This document shows positions 1,331-44,475 of a stretch of 45,042 nucleotides of DNA, one piece after another. Numbering within the stretch: the first letter of the stretch is position 1; each line of letters opens with the position of its first letter. The notes under the pieces are model-generated. The model saw only the letters and a program-made list of their open reading frames with translations. It did not search any database and had not been told where the DNA came from. The position numbers and the translations under genes were made by a program. Source of the stretch: a virus (lineage: Duplodnaviria > Heunggongvirae > Uroviricota > Caudoviricetes); IMG/VR virus record IMGVR_UViG_2563366951_000002, positions 1 to 45,042 of that record; one strand, written 5' to 3'.

Positions 1331-1345
1331 GCTTTTTTATACTAA
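1331..1345. other. attL core (common core O of lambda att)
   Basis: GCTTTTTTATACTAA flanked on the left by host attB half (tgaagcct) and on the right by lambda P' arm (gttggcattataaaaaagcattgc...). Confidence 0.9.
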
Positions 1346-11076: not shown

Positions 11077-11904
11077 ATGGGGTATGTCTCTATACACCGC
11101 CAGTTTATGGACAGCAGGCTCTATAAGGACTCTCAGGCAGTACATCTTTGGCTTCACTTAATCCTCAAGGCTAATCACGAATCTACTGTCGTCAATACGG
11201 ATATCGGTCCGATAACTGTTGATCGCGGTCAGATGATAACTGGACGCCCGTCGCTGGTCAGAGAAACATTCATCCCCGACAACAAAGTTCGGAGCTTATT
11301 ACGGACTTTTGAGTCGAAAGGGATGCTTAATATTTGCTCGATGGGGAAGAAATTTAGCCTGTTTACAATCGTTAAATATGACGATTTTCAGGCAAAAAAT
11401 TGTCCAACGGTTGTCCAACGGTTGTCCATCGCAAACACCAGTAATGGCGCGGCTCTCAGCGGAGATTGTCCAACGGTTGTCCAACGGTTGTCCATAAACA
11501 ATAATATAAATAATATCTCTAATACTGACGTATTAGAGAGTACCGCAGCAGACAAAAAGTCTGACAAGAAAAAACCTTCCGTTAGCTGTCAGGATGTTGT
11601 CGATGCTTACCACGAAATCCTTCCTGAAGCGCCAAAAATCCGCGCACTGAATGACAAGCGTAAAAACCAGATCCGAACGTTCTGGCGCAAAGCCGGAGTG
11701 ATAACCCGCCAGCTCGACGGGCATGGGTTCACGATGCAGGACTGGAGAAATTATTTGAGCTACGTAGGCGAAAATTGCCGATGGATGTTCGAAGAGCGCC
11801 CAAACCATCAGCGCGGAACCGTCTGGCACAAAAAGGGATTTGATTTCCTGCTTAACGATAATACCTACCTGAAAGTTCGTGAGGGTGAACACGATGACCG
11901 ATAA
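11077..11904 (+). CDS. Replication initiator, O-like, with origin iterons inside the gene
   Basis: ATG at 11077 with AGGAGG 8 nt upstream (track ORF starts at 11014); iteron repeats and an AT-rich block lie within the coding sequence as in lambda O; stop overlaps the helicase start. Confidence 0.7.
   Translation: MGYVSIHRQFMDSRLYKDSQAVHLWLHLILKANHESTVVNTDIGPITVDRGQMITGRPSLVRETFIPDNKVRSLLRTFESKGMLNICSMGKKFSLFTIVKYDDFQAKNCPTVVQRLSIANTSNGAALSGDCPTVVQRLSINNNINNISNTDVLESTAADKKSDKKKPSVSCQDVVDAYHEILPEAPKIRALNDKRKNQIRTFWRKAGVITRQLDGHGFTMQDWRNYLSYVGENCRWMFEERPNHQRGTVWHKKGFDFLLNDNTYLKVREGEHDDR
11400..11496. repeat. Origin iterons: two clusters of three 11-bp direct repeats
   Basis: TTGTCCAACGG at 11400, 11411, 11422 (third copy degenerate) and again at 11466, 11477, 11488; followed by AT-rich aacaataatataaataatatctctaatact. 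Confidence 0.75.
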
Positions 11905-14359
11905 TTTTTATGCGCCGCCCCATAGCATCGAGGCAGAGCAGGCGGTGATTGGTGGATTGCTTCTGGATGATGACAGCAGTGAGCGCGTCCAGAAAGTTCT
12001 GGCGATGCTGAAGCCTGATTCATTTTACTGCCGACCACACAAAATCCTTTTCGAAGAAATAACCAGAATGCACCGTGAGCAAAAGCCAGTAGATGGCCTG
12101 ACGCTTTTCGATGAACTGGAGCGTAAATCGTTAACGGCGTCTGTTGGCGGTTTTGCTTATATCACTGAGATCGCAAAGAACACGCCAAGCGCCGCAAACA
12201 TCGTTGCCTATGCAATGCAGGTTCGCGAAACCGCAATGGAACGCTACGCCATCAACCGCATGACTGAAGCGACGGAATTGCTCTATTCCCGCAACGGAAT
12301 GACTGCGACGCAGAAGTACGAAGCTATTCAGGCGATTTTCACGCAACTGACAGACCATGCAAAAACCGGATCGCGTCGCGGCCTTCGCTCATTTGGTGAG
12401 GTTATGGAAGACTGGGTTAGCGACCTTGAGAAACGATTTGACCCATCAGGCGAACAACGGGGAATGAGCACAGGGATCCCATCGCTGGACAGGATGCTGT
12501 CACCGAAAGGTCTGGTGAAAGGCTCTCTGTTTGTCATTGGCGCTCGCCCTAAGATGGGGAAAGCGCAACCGCTTAATTCACGCATTTTGCTTGCTGATGG
12601 TTCATGGACAACATTTCGTGACGTATGTGTTGGAGATTCCCTAGCATCAGTGGATGGACAACCATCATTCGTGTCTGGAGTTTTTCCTCAAGGGGAGCGA
12701 GATATTTACCGAGTTACGTTCTCTGACGGAAGAACCGTTGATTGCGCGGATGATCATTTGTGGGAGATTCATAGTAACCGTATTACCGGTGGCGTTGATG
12801 TTGTAGACACCTGCCGCCTACGGGACATGATGGAATGCGTTCGCTATCAAAGCCGCATTCATGTTCCTGGTATTAGCGGTGACTTCGGATTGCCTGTTGA
12901 TTTAGGGATTAGCCCATGGCTGTTAGGTGCGTTACTTGGCGATGGAAATCTTGCAGGTACGCCACGAATCAGCATGACGGAACCATACATCATTGAGCGA
13001 GTAAGATCTGAAGTGGGTGACGATATTGAAGTCAGGCATGTTTCTGGCTGCGATTACTCCCTATCTCACAAGTTTAGCCGCAAATTATCTCTTACGCGGG
13101 TTATGCAACGGCTTGGTATCTACGGCCGGATGTCAGAGATTAAAATTATCCCGGATATTATTTTTTCTGCTGATAAGCAAACTCGTATTGATGTTCTATG
13201 CGGATTACTTGAAACCGATGGTTGGGTTGAAGGAAATAATGCCCTGCGCTTTAGCTCGGCAAGCAAGTTCCTGTCAGATGGTGTAAAGCGGCTGGTGCAT
13301 TCTCTTGGTGGCGTGTGTCGTATGACAACCAAACAGGAGCCGAAATTCAGTTATAAGGGAGAAATGCGCAAAGGTATGGATGCCCATATTTGCGCAATCA
13401 GGTTGCCTGATGAGGTTCTATCACACATAAAATCTCCACGCCTGAAGCAAAAATTCACTGCAAAACGCATCAAAACAAGTGCGCCTGTTATCACGTCGGT
13501 TGAGTATATTGGACGTGAAGAGTGCATTTGCATCATGGTATCCCACGAGAGACATTTGTATGCAACTGACGGATACATTCTAACTCACAACACCACGCTA
13601 TACAGCCAGATGGCAATCAACTGCGCAGTGCATGAGAAAAAGCCCGCTCTGATGTTCAGCCTTGAAATGCCAGGTGACCAGATACTGGAAAAACTGGTGG
13701 GACAGAAGTCAGGTGTTAACCCGAATATTTTTTACCTTCCGGCGACAAATGACGCTGATGACAGCTATCAGGGTGATTACGATGGTGACTTCAACAGGGC
13801 GATCGAAACAGCCAATCGCTTGAGTGAAATCGACCTGCTTTACATCGACGACACGCCGGGATTATCTCTGGCTCAAATCGTCAGCGAAAGCCGTCGAATC
13901 AAGCGAGAAAAAGGATGTGTTGGCATGATTCTGGTCGATTACCTGACACTAATGACTGCTGAGAAGGCCGATCGCAACGACCTTGCTTACGGCATGATCA
14001 CCAAAGGATTGAAGAACCTTGCCAAAGAGCTTGATTGCGTTGTTGTGCTTCTGACACAGCTTAACCGCGCACTGGAAAGCCGAACCAATAAACGCCCATT
14101 ACCAAGTGACTCACGAGATACAGGGCAGATTGAACAGGATTGCGATTATTGGGTTGGGATCCATCGGGAAGGTGCTTTTGATGACAGCGTTCCTCCTGGT
14201 GAAACCGAACTAATCCTTCGTCTCAATCGTCATGGCAATACCGGCACGGTGTATTGCATTCAGGCAAATGGCGCTATTTATGACACAGACCAACAGTCTG
14301 CTGAAATGCGCCGACGTGAACGCGAGGAACCGCAGTCCAAGAAGAAAGGAGGATTCTGA
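11894..14359 (+). CDS. DnaB-family replicative helicase interrupted by an in-frame intein
   Basis: ATG at 11894 (track ORF starts at GTG 11879); N-terminal DnaB-like domain; Walker A GARPKMGK, then 343-aa insert, then TTLYSQMAIN...SLEMP...LVDYL...SDSRDTGQIEQDCD helicase motifs. Confidence 0.8.
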   Translation: MTDNFYAPPHSIEAEQAVIGGLLLDDDSSERVQKVLAMLKPDSFYCRPHKILFEEITRMHREQKPVDGLTLFDELERKSLTASVGGFAYITEIAKNTPSAANIVAYAMQVRETAMERYAINRMTEATELLYSRNGMTATQKYEAIQAIFTQLTDHAKTGSRRGLRSFGEVMEDWVSDLEKRFDPSGEQRGMSTGIPSLDRMLSPKGLVKGSLFVIGARPKMGKAQPLNSRILLADGSWTTFRDVCVGDSLASVDGQPSFVSGVFPQGERDIYRVTFSDGRTVDCADDHLWEIHSNRITGGVDVVDTCRLRDMMECVRYQSRIHVPGISGDFGLPVDLGISPWLLGALLGDGNLAGTPRISMTEPYIIERVRSEVGDDIEVRHVSGCDYSLSHKFSRKLSLTRVMQRLGIYGRMSEIKIIPDIIFSADKQTRIDVLCGLLETDGWVEGNNALRFSSASKFLSDGVKRLVHSLGGVCRMTTKQEPKFSYKGEMRKGMDAHICAIRLPDEVLSHIKSPRLKQKFTAKRIKTSAPVITSVEYIGREECICIMVSHERHLYATDGYILTHNTTLYSQMAINCAVHEKKPALMFSLEMPGDQILEKLVGQKSGVNPNIFYLPATNDADDSYQGDYDGDFNRAIETANRLSEIDLLYIDDTPGLSLAQIVSESRRIKREKGCVGMILVDYLTLMTAEKADRNDLAYGMITKGLKNLAKELDCVVVLLTQLNRALESRTNKRPLPSDSRDTGQIEQDCDYWVGIHREGAFDDSVPPGETELILRLNRHGNTGTVYCIQANGAIYDTDQQSAEMRRREREEPQSKKKGGF
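12563..13591 (+). mobile_element. Intein (343 aa) with LAGLIDADG homing-endonuclease domain, inserted in the helicase P-loop
   Basis: Insert begins AQPLNSRILLADG and ends YILTHN, followed by Thr; two LAGLIDADG motifs (LLGALLGDGNL, LCGLLETDGW); removing it restores GARPKMGK-TTLYSQ. Confidence 0.75.
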
Positions 14360-16365: not shown

Positions 16366-16867
16366 TGTTAAAGAAAAAGATATCCCCGGCTTTGAGGGTA
16401 TATATAAAGTAACTGAAAATGGAGACATCATTTCATGCCGTAAATCAAAAAAATTATCTCATGGCATTAAACCAGGAGGATATGCATTTGTCGGTCTGTA
16501 TCCAGGTGGCGGGAAAAGACCATCATATAAAATGGTTCACAGAATTGTTGCAGAAGTATTTATTGATAACCCAGATGGCAAACCGGAAGTTAATCACAAG
16601 GATGGAAATAAACTTAATAATAAAGTTGAAAATCTTGAGTGGGTAACGCGAACAGAAAATGCGAAACATGGATTTGATTCCGGATTGCTTGTTCATGGGT
16701 TTAATCATCACTTCTGCAAACTAACGCCAGAACAAGTGAAATCAATATATAAATCAAAAGGCAAATACAGAGATATAGCCAAAGAATTTGGTGTTTGTGC
16801 GCAGACAGTGTGCAACATAAAAAACAAATCAGCGTACCGACGTTTTTTGGAGGGGATTGATGTTTAG
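16358..16867 (+). CDS. Free-standing HNH-family endonuclease (169 aa)
   Basis: ORF from track; HNH-like core (EVNHKDGNKLNNKVENLEWVTRTENAKHG) with N-terminal GIYKVTENGDI segment; region is visibly AT-rich relative to flanks. Confidence 0.7.
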   Translation: MSDVKEKDIPGFEGIYKVTENGDIISCRKSKKLSHGIKPGGYAFVGLYPGGGKRPSYKMVHRIVAEVFIDNPDGKPEVNHKDGNKLNNKVENLEWVTRTENAKHGFDSGLLVHGFNHHFCKLTPEQVKSIYKSKGKYRDIAKEFGVCAQTVCNIKNKSAYRRFLEGIDV

Positions 16868-17135
16868 AAGCAAAAAATGGCTTCAGACAGTCAGGGATAT
16901 TGAATTTTGCGTTCTTTGCGGAAGATACGGAGTTCAGGCCGCTCACAGAAATGAAGGGAAGGGGGTTGGGATTAAAGTAGATGATTGCCTTACTGCTGCG
17001 CTATGTGTTGATTGTCATTCAAGAATTGATAATGGGAGAGATATGAGCAGGGAAGAGCGAAGGGCTGAAATGGATCGGGCCATTGTGCTTACCCTTAAAA
17101 AATTGGTTAACAATGGGAGGGTGTTTGTCCAATGA
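16860..17135 (+). CDS. Small Cys/His-rich nin-region protein (DUF1364/YbcO-like?)
   Basis: ATG at 16860 (track ORF starts at TTG 16857); CxxC ... C..C.H pattern (CVLCGRY, CVDCHSR). Confidence 0.5.
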   Translation: MFRSKKWLQTVRDIEFCVLCGRYGVQAAHRNEGKGVGIKVDDCLTAALCVDCHSRIDNGRDMSREERRAEMDRAIVLTLKKLVNNGRVFVQ

Positions 17136-37426: not shown

Positions 37427-37840
37427 ATGAAAATCATTACTTACACGCAAATGCGATCGGATTTATCTGCAACGCTGGACTGTTTACGCTCTGGTGAAAG
37501 CGTCACAGTTACGCAGCGCGGAAAGCCCGACCTTGTCATCAGTGCAAAATCAGTTGATGAAATCGCTTCCGCAGATGAGGTAAAAACATCTGCGAAAACA
37601 ATAGACACGCATCTTGCGCAATTAATTGCATCGAATTTGTCACCACAGATAACGGAGGGTGTCATGAAGCTTACTAAGCAATTGGATGCCCTTCTTCAGT
37701 CTGATGAGGCTCGCCAGACTATGATGAAGGCCACTAATGCAGCAGTTGCTTTGCAGGGCGTGTCTGAGTCATTTATCAAAGCTCTGCAACATACTCAGAC
37801 CAAGCATGCGGACATCATAAAAAAACTGGAAGATAAGTAA
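37427..37840 (+). CDS. Phd/YefM-type antitoxin with extended C-terminal region (137 aa)
   Basis: ATG at 37427 with GAGAGGG upstream; N-terminus MKIITYTQMRSDLSATLDCLRSGESVTVTQRGKPDLVI has Phd/YefM character; stop overlaps the toxin start (TAATG). Confidence 0.65.
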   Translation: MKIITYTQMRSDLSATLDCLRSGESVTVTQRGKPDLVISAKSVDEIASADEVKTSAKTIDTHLAQLIASNLSPQITEGVMKLTKQLDALLQSDEARQTMMKATNAAVALQGVSESFIKALQHTQTKHADIIKKLEDK

Positions 37841-38247
37841 TGACTGAGATTACATTCCTTTCGGTAGATGAGGTCATCGCTATTCAGAAGAGCACATTGC
37901 CAAATAGCGGACAACCAGACCGGGGAAAACTCGAAGGTGCCCTCAATCGCGTCGATAACTTACGCATGTATGAAGGATGTGAGGATTTATTTAAATTTGC
38001 AGCTATGTACATGGTTGCGATAGCGAAGTCTCACGCTTTTAATGACGCCAATAAGCGAACGGCTTTCCAGGCCGCCAGCGTGTTTTTGCTTTTGAATGGC
38101 TATGAACTGAATACCTCAATGGAGTTAGTCAAGCTGACCATCTTTGCTGCTACGGGAGAGGCCGACTGCGATAACACTGCTTTGGCGCTTAAACTTTTGT
38201 CAGATTATAAGAATGAGCTGCTGGCAGATACGATAACTGGCTACTGA
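37840..38247 (+). CDS. doc: Doc-family toxin (Fic/Doc fold, 135 aa)
   Basis: Motif HAFNDANKRTA matches the Doc signature as in P1 Doc (HIFNDANKRTA); translationally coupled to the upstream antitoxin. Confidence 0.8.
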   Translation: MTEITFLSVDEVIAIQKSTLPNSGQPDRGKLEGALNRVDNLRMYEGCEDLFKFAAMYMVAIAKSHAFNDANKRTAFQAASVFLLLNGYELNTSMELVKLTIFAATGEADCDNTALALKLLSDYKNELLADTITGY

Positions 38248-40596: not shown

Positions 40597-41273
40597 GCAA
40601 ATACACCGAACTGATCACTAACTACCACGCTACCAAGCCACTCTTTTTTGACCATATAGATCTGAGCACCCGCCCGTTGATTGATGTGTCCAGCACTATG
40701 TCAGGACTTGTAACAGCCTTTGATATAGATACGGCGGTCGGCGTACAGCTCGATACCCTCGGTCTGTGGATTGGGCGTAGTCGTATAGTCAGCCAGCCAA
40801 TTAGCGGCGTTTATTTCAGCTGGGACACTGACGGGCTCGGATATGACCAGGGGGTATGGCAGGGACCATACGATCCTGATTCAGGATACATGTATCTCAG
40901 CGATGAAACTTATCGTGTCATTCTTAAAGCGAAGATTGCGATTAATAACTGGGACGGACGGAATGATTCGCTTCCAGTAATTCTTGACGCGGCAACAGCA
41001 GGATCCGGGCTGCGAATGCAGATAGTCGATAACCAGGACATGACGATATCGGTCTGGGTCTTTCCTGATACTGATATTTCAGATGTATCGCGTGAGTTAA
41101 TTGCCGCAATTAAACAGGGCTATCTCACCGTAAAAGCAGCTGGCGTATGGGCCGGTGATGTGGAAACGCCTTCGGTAGAAACACCGTCTGAAGGCACTAA
41201 ATTTTTTGGGTTTGATATGGACAACGAATATATCGGCGGTTTTGATACCGGCGCTTGGGGGGTATTACTCTAA
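40593..41273 (+). CDS. Putative tail protein (226 aa)
   Basis: ORF from track; precedes the tail fibre gene. Confidence 0.5.
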   Translation: MSKYTELITNYHATKPLFFDHIDLSTRPLIDVSSTMSGLVTAFDIDTAVGVQLDTLGLWIGRSRIVSQPISGVYFSWDTDGLGYDQGVWQGPYDPDSGYMYLSDETYRVILKAKIAINNWDGRNDSLPVILDAATAGSGLRMQIVDNQDMTISVWVFPDTDISDVSRELIAAIKQGYLTVKAAGVWAGDVETPSVETPSEGTKFFGFDMDNEYIGGFDTGAWGVLL

Positions 41274-42211
41274 TGGCAACAAATAACTTCAAAGCGTTCG
41301 CGCTTGATCCTAACGCTAATGTTACGCCACAAGCTGACTGGGAGGCGCTACCGACACTACTATCAGGATTTACTTCAGGTAAGGCATCAAGTGCGCAGGT
41401 GAATAAAGCGCTTAGACAGTCGTTGTTTATTGCTTCTACCTTGGCTGAATTTGTATCAACGACACTGAATACGGATATCCTTGATGATGGTGATGTCACT
41501 GGGTTCGTGAGTAAATTGACATCTGCATTACAATTAAATTCTCCAGGGCGTCTCATTAATATTCAGACTATCACTACTTCAGGAACGTACACAAAAACAC
41601 CTGGTGCGAAGCATGCTTTAATTCGTGCAGTAGGAGGGGGGGCAGGTGGTGGCGGGGCTCCTGCCACTTCATCAACGACTCAGTCAACAGCAAAAGGTGG
41701 GGAATCTGGCGCTTATATTGAAGCGTATGTTGATCTAAGTTCTGTGACTTCTTTATCTGCAATTATTGGTGCTGGTGGAGTTGGAGCCATTGCTGGCAGT
41801 AATAGCGGGACATCTGGCGGAACGACTTCCTTAGGGAGTCTAATTTCATGTCCAGGTGGTGAGCCTGGAATTGGTGGGAATACCAGCGCAGCAAGTTTTG
41901 TATCATCTGACAGGGCATCAAATAAAGCGCCAATGTCAACAGGCATGATTTTGGTTTCAACGCCAACATCGTTACCAAACCTTGGCCGCGTAGCAAATCC
42001 ATCAGCTCCTACTGTTGGTGGTACCGGTGGATCTAATCCTTTAGGGATGGGGGGGGCTGCTGGAGCTGCGGTACCAGGAACACCTACATTACCGACAAAT
42101 GGAAGTGGCTATGGTAGTGGGGGAGGGGGAGGCGTATCAGTTGGAGGGATGTCTGCAATGGGCGGTGGTAATGGTGCGCCTGGAATTATTATCATCATGG
42201 AGTATGCGTAA
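41273..42211 (+). CDS. Tail fibre protein with glycine-rich C-terminal region (312 aa)
   Basis: ATG at 41273 (TAATG overlap with upstream stop; track ORF starts 41255); C-terminal Gly-rich repeats (GGGAGGGGAP, GGTGGSNPLGMGGAAGAA); followed by a fibre assembly gene. Confidence 0.65.
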   Translation: MATNNFKAFALDPNANVTPQADWEALPTLLSGFTSGKASSAQVNKALRQSLFIASTLAEFVSTTLNTDILDDGDVTGFVSKLTSALQLNSPGRLINIQTITTSGTYTKTPGAKHALIRAVGGGAGGGGAPATSSTTQSTAKGGESGAYIEAYVDLSSVTSLSAIIGAGGVGAIAGSNSGTSGGTTSLGSLISCPGGEPGIGGNTSAASFVSSDRASNKAPMSTGMILVSTPTSLPNLGRVANPSAPTVGGTGGSNPLGMGGAAGAAVPGTPTLPTNGSGYGSGGGGGVSVGGMSAMGGGNGAPGIIIIMEYA

Positions 42212-42603
42212 TGAAATATGCAGTCATTGAAAACGGGAATGTTATAAACATTATTGAACTAGATGATTCAGAAATGCTTCCTGGAACCGAGTTAGAAATT
42301 ATACCTGAAGGTGAAGTTGTAGATATAGGCTATAAGTGGGTTGGAACGACATTTGAACCTCCACCAAAGCCAGATCTGACTGACACAGAACGCCTGGAAT
42401 TAATTACGATTCAGAGAGATGAGCGGATTTCAGCTGCTTTAAACTATGTATCATTTAACAACCTAAATGCAAAATTGTTGCTAAATATGCTTTCTGATGA
42501 GGAAAAAAACCTTTACGCTTCAATAATTAAATACGTTGATACACTTAGGGGTATGCAGTTCAATTCTTTATCTGAAATAAAGTGGCCTGCTCTCCCGTAC
42601 TAG
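42211..42603 (+). CDS. Tail fibre assembly protein (Tfa-like, 130 aa)
   Basis: MKYAVIENGNVINIIELDD... and position after the fibre gene with TAATG coupling. Confidence 0.65.
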   Translation: MKYAVIENGNVINIIELDDSEMLPGTELEIIPEGEVVDIGYKWVGTTFEPPPKPDLTDTERLELITIQRDERISAALNYVSFNNLNAKLLLNMLSDEEKNLYASIIKYVDTLRGMQFNSLSEIKWPALPY

Positions 42604-42608
42604 TTTAA

Positions 42609-42634
42609 CCCGCGACCTATCGTGAGGTCGCGGT
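42609..42634. terminator. Hairpin between convergent tfa and acyltransferase genes
   Basis: Stem CCCGCGACC/GGTCGCGG with 8-nt loop; no clean U-tract on either strand. Confidence 0.35.
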
Positions 42635-42642
42635 GTTATAGA

Positions 42643-43686
42643 TTACCCTGTAAATATGCTCATGATTATCTTTGAAGCGCGTTTACTTTCAAGGTGGCTA
42701 GATATCATTTTCACTAATTTTACTTGTGAATACACAACTAATAATGCAAGTGTATAAGTTACAATAAATGTTATCACAAAGTTTAAACTGAGTTTGTGGC
42801 ACATTAATATGAATAAAATGTGCCACAGATAAAGCCATATTGAGTTTTCTGAAGTAAATTTGACAAGTGTCCATGCAACAGTATTTTTTAAGCGAGCCAC
42901 AATGGCATCAGCATATAAATAAACCAGTGTGCTAACGAATACAGCATAGGATAAATAGTAAATCCCCGGGGGGTATTTATCAATTTGTGTTGGGATAAAG
43001 GAATTATCTACAAAGTAAAAATCAATAACTAAGAAAAAGAACAGGGACGCAGAACAAATAATCAACAGTAAAATTTGCTTTTTGTCTAAACTCATTAGTT
43101 TATAGCCGATTAAAAATACAAACATATAAGGTATAGTGTTTGCAATATAGGAGCCGATGAGAACCATTTTGTTCATTTCGTCAAGCTCTTTATAGAAACT
43201 TTTGAATTGACTATTAATAATTACGGTGAGAGCAAAAAAAGATAGTAGATACAACATTCTTGCATTGAGTAATTTCTTTGGTAAGAATATCGCAATTGTC
43301 GAAATTATGAAAAAAAGCCTTATAACCCAAACATATCCCAATCCGCTAGATAACGTAAATGAGGTAATTATATGCCCTTGTGGATAAGTGAAGTTTTTAA
43401 TATTAAATGCTAAGGCAAGACATTCATTTATTACGAAGAAAAAACCAAAGAAAATCCATGTAGGAAGAACTAATCGACGAAAGCGCGAGGCGATATAACC
43501 TAGTTTGTCTTTATGTCTTTCCTCTGTCACATAAAATGACATTCCCATGACCATAAACATTAAAGGTACATCGAAGTTACGCAGTTGAGCTAGCCATAAA
43601 GGAGGCTGGACATGGGCTAGAATGATTAGAGAAAGCCCGAGAAATCTTAAAAAATCTATTTTATCAATACGCATGACTTCGTCCAT
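42643..43686 (-). CDS. Acyltransferase-3 family integral membrane protein (O-antigen acetylase-like, 347 aa)
   Basis: ORF from track; about ten hydrophobic segments; N-terminal FLRFLGLSLIILAHV typical of acyltransferase_3; very AT-rich codon usage unlike neighbours; opposite strand to the tail genes, next to attR. Confidence 0.7.
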   Translation of the reverse strand: MDEVMRIDKIDFLRFLGLSLIILAHVQPPLWLAQLRNFDVPLMFMVMGMSFYVTEERHKDKLGYIASRFRRLVLPTWIFFGFFFVINECLALAFNIKNFTYPQGHIITSFTLSSGLGYVWVIRLFFIISTIAIFLPKKLLNARMLYLLSFFALTVIINSQFKSFYKELDEMNKMVLIGSYIANTIPYMFVFLIGYKLMSLDKKQILLLIICSASLFFFLVIDFYFVDNSFIPTQIDKYPPGIYYLSYAVFVSTLVYLYADAIVARLKNTVAWTLVKFTSENSIWLYLWHILFILMCHKLSLNFVITFIVTYTLALLVVYSQVKLVKMISSHLESKRASKIIMSIFTG

Positions 43687-44267
43687 TAGATTTTATAGAT
43701 CAACGATTATACATTAGTATTGATCGGCTATGACACCATTGCTTATAGGTATGCTCTCTGTTGTATGAGTACAGCTCAGGAGCTTCGCCTTGGTTTGTTA
43801 TAGCTTACGGTGCCGATTTACGATGTCGGAGTGCCGACACCGTATCGCAAATTCCCGGTAGGCAGTGGTTAGACACGATGCAGGCCGCCGGTGATTGTTG
43901 AGACTGGCAGCCTGCATAATTTACAGCCCAACCTGGCGAACTGTCGGGAACTCAGATACCAGCCACATATCGGCTTCTTCAAACATATCCTCGTTTCTGG
44001 TCAAGTGAGGAGTGAAAATTCATGTGCCATTTTTGTGTCACACAAGGTGAAGCATCTAACATTGTCTTGCATCATGTGCCATTAAGTTTCTTATAGTGAA
44101 TGCGGCAATGTGTATGTAAAACAGCTAGTTAAATGTGATTCTACTAATTCGTAATGCGAAGGTCATGTGACGTTACCGTCTATCCAGTACGCCCACCATT
44201 GCATCATTTCTCTGCGCTTATCGAGATACTGAGCATGGTTGTAAATTCAGCAAACGACGTAATGTGT

Positions 44268-44314
44268 TTGACAAAAAATTAGCGCAAGAAGACAAAAAAA
44301 TCACCTTGCGCTAA
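44268..44314 (-). terminator. sib/tI-like hairpin distal to int across the att site
   Basis: 10-bp perfect inverted repeat TTAGCGCAAG...CTTGCGCTAA with 16-nt loop; on the minus strand followed by TTTTTTGT; lies just beyond the P arm, where lambda places sib/tI. Confidence 0.5.
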
Positions 44315-44323
44315 TGCTCTGTT

Positions 44324-44367
44324 ACAGGTCACTAATACCATCTAAGTGGTTGATTCATAGTGACTGG
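44324..44367. promoter_or_regulatory. P-arm Int arm-type sites (P1, P2)
   Basis: acaggtcactaat and inverted catagtgactgg match the lambda P1/P2 arm-type site pattern. Confidence 0.55.
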
Positions 44368-44460
44368 ATATGTTGTGTTTTGTAGCATTATGCAGTCTAT
44401 TTTTTAGACTAAAGATATTGTAACACATTGATATTAATGTTTTTTAATGTTTCGCGTTCA

Positions 44461-44475
44461 GCTTTTTTATACTAA
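44461..44475. other. attR core
   Basis: GCTTTTTTATACTAA followed by host attB right half (cttgagcgaaacggg). Confidence 0.9.

Follow-up and report, generated by a model that had tools for sequence, protein, structure and literature searches.

A prophage gene for an AT3-type membrane acyltransferase, linked to the tail-fibre assembly gene, is a candidate for O-antigen modification and phage exclusion

What does a lone membrane acyltransferase gene do for a temperate phage when it lies between the tail-fibre genes and the attachment site? This question is raised by a minus-strand gene near the right end of IMG/VR virus record IMGVR_UViG_2563366951_000002 (Caudoviricetes), of which positions 1 to 45,042, hereafter referred to as the window, were analysed; coordinates without a locus number are those of the window, and L numbers designate the loci compared. 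A preliminary description of this DNA took the gene for an AT-rich acyltransferase-3 (AT3) gene and proposed that it is an O-antigen acetylase-like serotype-conversion moron next to attR. Our analysis assigns the product to the AT3 proteins and makes O-antigen acylation with phage exclusion somewhat more probable than all other readings together, so that the gene is a well-supported but conventional lysogenic-conversion candidate. Three features go beyond the routine, namely the co-inheritance of the AT3 gene with the adjacent gene for the tail-fibre assembly protein (TAP), a breakpoint within the AT3 gene itself, and the pairing of its relatives with esterase tailspikes.

We first consider the gene and its product. 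The open reading frame (ORF) given in the preliminary description, 42643..43686 on the minus strand, is intact in the window and encodes 347 amino acids, but its first codon is not the conserved start. All close homologues begin with MR(I/D), which corresponds to the second in-frame ATG, at 43674, and the ATG at 43686, four codons upstream, is not conserved across the other genomic contexts compared. We therefore placed the coding sequence at 42643..43674 (−), which yields a protein of 343 residues and agrees with the start used in its public annotation (WP_016239894.1). The assignment to polytopic membrane proteins of the acyltransferase_3 type was borne out. The Pfam profile Acyl_transf_3 (PF01757) matched with 71.6 bits against a cut-off of 31 (E=7.9e-20), and the alignment of protein residues 8–317 with profile positions 2–320 of 326 takes in essentially the whole domain. 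R-X10-H in transmembrane helix (TMH) 1 and RXXR in TMH3, at the cytoplasmic face, are the defining and experimentally essential motifs of AT3 proteins (PMC9833829). The protein has both, as R10-X10-H21 and R64-F-R-R67, respectively. In an alignment of 39 family sequences the first motif, R64 and R67 are invariant, as are N33-F34-D35 and a W-x-Y-L-W-H block near the C-terminus.

The AlphaFold2 model of the protein (predicted local distance difference test, 94.4; predicted template-modelling score, 0.92) has about 10 long transmembrane helices. The only solved folds that matched it were those of human HGSNAT (TM-score 0.53, probability 1.0) and GWT1; no AT3 structure was among the PDB fold matches, and no PDB sequence matched either. 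HGSNAT and GWT1 belong to the transmembrane acyltransferase (TmAT) superfamily, which now takes in AT3 proteins (PMC12423673). The predicted structure thus places the protein in the AT3/TmAT group, with a 10-helix fold and a central pore. The ratio of nonsynonymous to synonymous substitution rates (dN/dS) was 0.11–0.15 against four diverged homologues, and the gene is under purifying selection. The protein consists of the AT3 domain only and is not of the two-domain OafA/OafB type; tblastn found neither an SGNH-encoding sequence nor a match to gtrA, gtrB or a type-specific gtr in the window. We therefore regard the enzyme as a stand-alone, AT3-only acyltransferase.

To locate the gene within its replicon, we searched for attachment sites. 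The lambda att core GCTTTTTTATACTAA (15 nt) occurs as an exact match only at 1331–1345 and 44461–44475, with 0.04 occurrences expected by chance. The two cores bracket a 43,145-bp prophage, and the AT3 gene therefore lies inside it. A pectinesterase-family gene (ybhC-like) on the left of the prophage and ybhB on its right mark the lambda att site of the E. coli chromosome. The structural genes are 95% identical to those of Citrobacter phage Omnitron, and the backbone is related to Escherichia phage vB_EcoM-611R5, Hafnia phage yong1 and Salmonella phage SEN34 (genus Brunovirus); homology to all four phages stops at about 41,410, just within the fibre gene. From these comparisons, the phage appears to be a Brunovirus-like (SEN34/Omnitron-type) temperate myovirus with an acquired lambda-type integration module.

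The GC content of the AT3 gene (0.328) falls in the lowest 0.4% of equal-sized segments of the prophage (mean 0.499, standard deviation 0.053), and the terminase, portal, capsid, sheath-region and baseplate genes have values of 0.53–0.59. The low GC content relative to the tail genes, pointed out in the preliminary description, is therefore real, but it is not peculiar to this gene. Third-position GC is just as low in the fibre (0.307) and TAP (0.313) genes as in AT3 (0.326), against 0.48–0.71 in the other structural genes; the drop starts at about 41.3 kb, and the AT-rich block takes in all three genes. What had been read as a property of AT3 is shared with the fibre and TAP genes, and TAP and AT3 travel together, as described below. 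The convergent orientation had been recognized correctly: the TAP stop codon (42603) and the AT3 stop codon (42643) face each other across a 39-nt spacer. The gene also lies between the fibre genes and the attachment site, as proposed, although not immediately next to attR, since 786 nt of mosaic debris separate it from the attR core.

The AT3 gene occupies an accessory slot of a temperate phage, with the receptor-binding genes on one side and the att/int region on the other, and the other occupants of this slot are informative. In Sf6 the order is tailspike, terminator, oac (convergent and with its own promoter) and intS. In the sister prophage L001, fibre and TAP genes are followed by an identical AT3, an Sf6-type integrase (98.2% identical to Sf6 Int) and tRNA-Arg(CCU). 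Gene order, sequence likeness and the dinI and intS remnants upstream of AT3 in the window show that AT3 and Sf6 oac occupy homologous slots. Phage SfII has an AT3 gene (SfII_25, 349 aa) between gtrII and a convergent TAP gene. SfII_25 is very probably OacD, as it is the sole AT3 in the 14.5-kb SfII stretch inspected and oacD of SfII is responsible for 6-O-acetylation of the O-antigen GlcNAc (PMC8973906). In SEN34, with its related backbone, the corresponding slot holds an AT3 of another subfamily, annotated as an ‘O-acetyltransferase’ (SEN34_29; L032:9144-10235) and not mentioned in the SEN34 phage paper, which precedes a DinI-sized ORF of 88 aa and an integrase gene. In an E. coli S163-2 prophage, the slot is occupied by a 631-aa AT3-SGNH fusion (L028:2986-4881), accompanied by intact dinI and intS. 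A gene annotated as ‘O-antigen polymerase’ is found about 3 kb past intS of the latter prophage (L028:9918-10734). A homologue with 48% identity directly follows gtrA-gtrB-gtr(type) at argW (L017–L020), and one with 57% identity lies between the tail-fibre assembly and sheath genes of a P2-like prophage (L024:3710-4753), a position that we take to be the P2 Z/fun conversion locus. No AT3 gene is present in vB_EcoM-611R5 (L031:2717-5258), where alternative fibre and TAP segments lie on opposite strands beside a DNA invertase. The arrangement in vB_EcoM-611R5 is that of an invertible host-range switch, and an unannotated 281-aa ORF and a DinI-sized ORF follow it.

To assess the linkage to receptor-binding genes, we used 15 IMG/VR loci that encode AT3 relatives, two of which (L043 and L044) were not analysed individually. 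The homologue lies directly beside a recognizable receptor-binding or fibre-assembly gene in 10 of the 15; in L040 the TAP genes are about 1.7 kb away, and the neighbours in L046 and L053 are less certain. At least three loci, and probably six, pair the AT3 relative with a tailspike of the G7C type, a probable O-antigen deacetylase. In L041:1332-4811, L042:3357-6834, L045:656-4133 and L052:1-3337, AT3 relatives of 355 aa (44–45% identity) are convergent to genes for tailspikes of 755–792 aa, at a distance of 33–65 nt. The spikes of L041, L042 and L052 have the Pfam domains Tail_spike_N, Gp63_3rd_G7C, GDSL/SGNH and G7C_GBD, which is the architecture of the G7C gp63.1 esterase; the ORF layout of L045 matches these three, and L043 and L044 are presumed to be similar. 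Alignment of the esterase tailspike with the G7C protein covered 85% of its length and gave 35% identity, and G7C gp63.1 deacetylates the O-polysaccharide (PMC10743462).

Such pairings bring up an alternative function, in which the AT3 gene would write a mark that is read by the phage's own receptor-binding protein. The acetylated glycan would then serve as a receptor for kin phages, or benefit host fitness, for instance through immune evasion, and exclusion would be incidental. TAP stays on the fibre tip in some phages. The alternative draws on the pairing of the 44–45% relatives with gp63.1-type spikes, given that G7C needs O-acetylated O-antigen to infect, and on the co-variation of TAP with AT3. 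The phage in the window, however, has a fibre and TAP and no esterase spike, and the cases studied experimentally, Sf6 and others, are all exclusion systems, so that we consider this function decidedly unlikely.

We then compared the region with other prophages at the nucleotide level. Segment 42212–44160 has zero nucleotide differences from five other prophages, except for four in the 39-nt hairpin spacer of L001, whereas the wedge, baseplate and fibre genes of these five differ by up to 17–27%. TAP and AT3 are thus 100% identical in prophages with differing wedge and fibre genes, and prophages integrated at three different places in the chromosome share the identical AT3 allele. Prophage L015 presents the converse case. 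Its baseplate J (99%) and fibre (94.6%) are close to those in the window, whereas TAP and AT3 have amino acid identities of 49% and 57%, respectively. The breakpoint falls inside AT3: residues 1–45 are unchanged, identity is 57–83% over residues 46–120, and from there to the C-terminus it is about 40% on average. The exchange therefore involves TAP and the C-terminal two-thirds of AT3 jointly, and the intragenic breakpoint appears to leave the predicted acetyl-CoA-binding N-terminus of AT3 constant.

A bolder proposal can be framed around these exchanges. The AT3 subfamily and the adjacent receptor-binding module (TAP/fibre tip, or the O-acetyl-esterase tailspike in the relatives) might be inherited jointly as a pair that acts on a single O-acetyl mark, either as writer and reader or as writer and eraser. 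The prophage would determine how the glycan is acetylated, a state to be read or stripped by its own virions or by those of rivals, and the variable C-terminal two-thirds of AT3 would set the acceptor specificity. We put this forward tentatively and regard it as unlikely; if true, it would mean an acetylation–deacetylation arms race within one swappable cassette.

The nearest flanks of the gene were examined for expression signals. In eight of the nine contexts, including the Enterobacter, chromosomal and P2-like copies, the spacing between the start codon and the TATAAT of a putative extended −10 element is constant. The exception is the argW/gtr copy L017, in which 3 nt are inserted and TATAAT gives way to a −10-like ATAAAT. 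A generic two-hexamer promoter scan did not list the TGTATAAT element. Dam/OxyR-type phase variation, as known for gtr operons, was considered and rejected: two GATC sites (43698 and 43722) flank the −10 element, but the first is lost in the Enterobacter copies and neither is present in the more distant contexts. On the opposite side of the gene, the spacer between the convergent TAP and AT3 genes can fold into a GC-rich hairpin with energies of −21.5 and −20.3 kcal/mol (z about −4 on both strands), which is probably a shared terminator or 3′ stabilizer of the two genes.

Comparison with copies outside this phage group delimits a portable unit. Enterobacter copies (L009–L014; 71% protein identity) are set among insertion-sequence fragments, one of them adjoining ssrA and an integrase, and their sharing with the window is limited to 42605–43785; chromosomal yebW-yebY copies are 74% identical in nucleotide sequence over 42606–43679. 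The hairpin moves with the cassette, as the Enterobacter homology begins at 42605. Together with its composition, this 1.2-kb unit of putative promoter, gene and putative terminator hairpin suggests a moron-like organization. Its presence is patchy as well: the gene is absent from vB_EcoM-611R5, a different AT3 is found in SEN34, and the homology to Omnitron stops within the fibre gene.

The 786 nt between the AT3 gene and the attR core turned out to consist of dinI and intS debris and a lambda/434-type attP arm (Table 1). An intact dinI is present at the corresponding position in L027, L028 and L039. The junction between the intS remnant and the attP arm, at 44246/44247, is a clean fossil of an integration-module swap. 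These remnants therefore indicate that the phage descends from an ancestor with the order fibre-TAP-AT3-dinI-intS, the integration module of which was later replaced with the lambda-type one. A regulatory RNA in this upstream region was rejected as an explanation, because Rfam returned sub-threshold chance matches only.

Does the AT3 gene function at all in this setting? It lies amid decayed dinI and intS remnants, it is rare in E. coli, and its very low GC content makes silencing by H-NS plausible; it could thus be inert, hitch-hiking cargo that is silent or non-functional in the host. This is the least probable of the explanations that we considered. An inert gene would hardly combine an intact ORF and invariant catalytic motifs with the low dN/dS given above and a −10 element conserved in nearly all contexts, or belong to a block that recently spread unchanged into several prophage backbones.

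To judge how closely the AT3 protein resembles known enzymes, we searched phage genomes, plasmids and bacterial chromosomes. It was not found by tblastn (E<=1e-5) in 50,697 phage genomes, the best hit being SfII at E=0.6, and 72,556 plasmids gave no match. A detectable homologue is present in four of 5,426 complete E. coli genomes, none with the allele of the window. A structure search of BFVD returned nothing. Against a profile of the AT3 family, Sf6 Oac had no significant score, SfII OacD scored 23.8 bits in its N-terminal half only, and WecH scored 11.4 bits. A tblastn match of Sf6 Oac at 16635–16961 (E=0.006 in a tiny database) was judged to be due to chance. The AT3 subfamily is thus a rare, uncharacterized branch, although it is a familiar kind of prophage cargo.

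The comparison with Sf6 is instructive on both sides. Sf6 Oac is likewise an AT3-only protein of about 340 aa with R-X10-H and RXXR, and it is a 2-O-acetylase of O-antigen rhamnose that brings about serotype conversion and superinfection exclusion. The slots are alike in that the gene is convergent with a receptor-binding gene, has its own promoter, shares a terminator region and lies next to an argW-type intS, the promoter and terminator in the window being predicted ones. The two proteins, however, have no similarity beyond the Pfam level, and tblastn with the window AT3 misses Sf6. Sf6 is a podovirus with an endorhamnosidase tailspike that keeps intS, whereas the phage in the window is a myovirus with a fibre and TAP and has a lambda-type att/int module in place of intS.

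The closest characterized relative by profile is SfII_25, for which hhalign gave a probability of 85% over the N-terminal 180 residues. It too is AT3-only, it is encoded by a temperate myovirus, and its gene has an O-antigen modification region on one side and a convergent TAP gene on the other. Its similarity is, however, limited to the N-terminal half, at about 26–30% identity, and SfII has gtrA/B/II whereas the window has none. SEN34 and S163-2 have a common backbone with the window phage (baseplate J, DUF2612 wedge, fibre and TAP), then the slot, and then a DinI-sized ORF and an integrase, but their enzymes differ: SEN34_29 belongs to a different AT3 subfamily (hhalign probability 3%) and the S163-2 protein has no profile score. 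Neither SEN34_29 nor the S163-2 AT3-SGNH protein is functionally characterized. WecH, the O-acetyltransferase of enterobacterial common antigen (ECA) in E. coli, is AT3-only and of similar length; it is, however, encoded by a chromosomal housekeeping gene, and its similarity is too weak for a transfer of substrate.

Homologues outside prophages were also inspected. A recurrent arrangement is that of the homologue and, after it, a second AT3 or AT3-SGNH gene (L021:7001-9638, L033:6001-9502 and L038:3756-6514). In L021–L023 and L033–L035 the pair lies upstream of yebY, after yebW (DUF535) or a Metallophos phosphatase gene; the neighbourhood of L038 differs. From gene content, the chromosomal pair looks like a two-acyltransferase island. 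An attempt to infer the substrate from distant chromosomal homologues was abandoned, as the Methylophilus context is uninformative and the enterobacterial copies lie outside O-antigen clusters.

These comparisons bear on the acceptor. Because the protein is not orthologous to characterized O-antigen acetylases, the same chemistry and the same exclusion role could be directed to another envelope glycan, such as ECA (as with WecH), the lipopolysaccharide (LPS) core, colanic acid or capsule, or periplasmic glucans. WecH is one of only two characterized AT3 enzymes with any profile similarity, marginal as that similarity is, and source annotations label the relatives ‘fucose 4-O-acetylase-like’ (a NolL-type label). 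An identical allele at three chromosomal sites would be easier to understand with a conserved glycan as target, and the position of the chromosomal homologues outside O-antigen clusters fits as well. All other cargo seen in the homologous slot, on the other hand, consists of O-antigen modifiers or AT3 proteins of that type, and the relatives are paired with O-antigen deacetylase-type tailspikes. We regard a different glycan as a real but clearly less probable option than the O-antigen.

Several observations weigh against O-antigen acylation as the function. No model of NCBIfam, PHROG or PADLOC matches the AT3 protein, which has no sequence orthology to a characterized O-antigen acetylase and no SGNH partner within the window. 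Substrates of AT3 enzymes include ECA, osmoregulated glucans, peptidoglycan and capsules as well, and the group transferred by some of them is succinyl rather than acetyl (PMC9558356). The nearest non-phage homologues reside in small chromosomal islands outside O-antigen clusters. Both the promoter and the terminator of the gene are predictions: the hairpin has no U-tract, and a terminator scan found no intrinsic terminator. It is the position of the gene and its neighbours, that is, its context, that support serotype conversion. The proposal of an O-antigen acetylase-like serotype-conversion moron accordingly stands as far as the AT3 motifs, the foreign composition and the slot are concerned, and falls short with regard to orthology to a characterized O-antigen acetylase.

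On balance, we still favour O-antigen acylation with phage exclusion, to the extent stated at the outset. That the gene is expressed in the lysogen, that the acyl group is acetyl, that the O-antigen is the acceptor and that exclusion is the benefit are our inferences. As lysogenic-conversion cargo, AT3 would be expressed in the lysogen, probably from its own extended −10 promoter, opposite to and independent of late transcription. The acyl donor would most likely be acetyl-CoA, bound by R10, R64 and R67, from which the 10-helix protein in the inner membrane would take the acetyl group and pass it through the central pore via H21. On the periplasmic side, an envelope polysaccharide would then be O-acylated at one of its sugars, the most likely acceptor being the repeat unit of the O-antigen. 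The altered surface would change or mask the receptor for the phage's own fibre/TAP pair and for other glycan-dependent phages, with superinfection exclusion and possibly a new O-factor as the outcome. In Sf6, acetylation by Oac blocks Sf6 superinfection (PMC9558356).

Table 1. Positions of the AT3 gene, its predicted signals and associated prophage features in the window.
Feature	Coordinates	Strand	Basis
AT3-only membrane acyltransferase coding sequence, WP_016239894.1	42643..43674	−	Pfam, motifs, AlphaFold2 model, dN/dS
Putative extended −10 element TGTATAAT, 28 nt upstream of ATG 43674	43703..43710	−	Read from sequence
9-bp GC hairpin CCGCGACCT / AGGTCGCGG between convergent TAP and AT3	42611..42634	.	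Folding energy
Putative minimal portable cassette: hairpin, AT3 and about 110 nt of promoter region	42605..43785	−	76% nucleotide identity to Enterobacter copies over exactly this span
Recently spread block: TAP, AT3 and upstream debris	42212..44160	.	Nucleotide comparison with five other prophages
Tail fibre, 312 aa, Gly_rich_2; AT-rich third-position block begins here	41273..42211	+	Profile search, third-position GC
TAP, 130 aa	42211..42603	+	Caudo_TAP
dinI remnant, last 23 codons (aa 66–88 of an 88-aa DinI-family protein)	43924..43992	−	Comparison with intact copies
argW/Sf6-type integrase (intS) remnant, last 27 codons	44166..44246	−	96% identical to L001 integrase C-terminus
Lambda/434-type attP arm ending in attR core (44461–44475)	44247..44475	+	94–95% identity to phage 434 attP
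attL core	1331..1345	+	Exact core match
Lambda-type integrase	1419–2489	−	Arm-DNA-bind_1 and Phage_integrase

Two further loci of the prophage were noted. Within the tail cluster, 37409–38247 (+) encodes a Phd/YefM-like antitoxin and a Fic/Doc-family protein, with a GC content of about 0.45 against 0.53 in the neighbours; the Fic protein has a weak match to the PADLOC candidate PDC-M59B, and the same spot holds other small cargo in related prophages. At 11879–14359 (+), an 826-aa DnaB-type helicase has a LAGLIDADG_3 match at residues 439–485, between its DnaB N- and C-terminal domains. An intein within it is probable, because the protein exceeds the normal length of DnaB by about 350 aa and has this match.

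Surface acetylation directed by prophages alters serotype, vaccine epitopes and phage susceptibility, and it has been well studied in Shigella and Salmonella but barely in E. coli. The AT3 branch described here is found almost exclusively next to receptor-binding genes of phages, across at least four tail architectures, and moves either alone or with the fibre-assembly gene. Identification of its acceptor sugar would yield a new O-factor or a new determinant of exclusion and, together with the esterase-tailspike pairings of the relatives, would provide a tractable system in which to study the writing and erasing of acetyl marks by phages on the receptors that they use.

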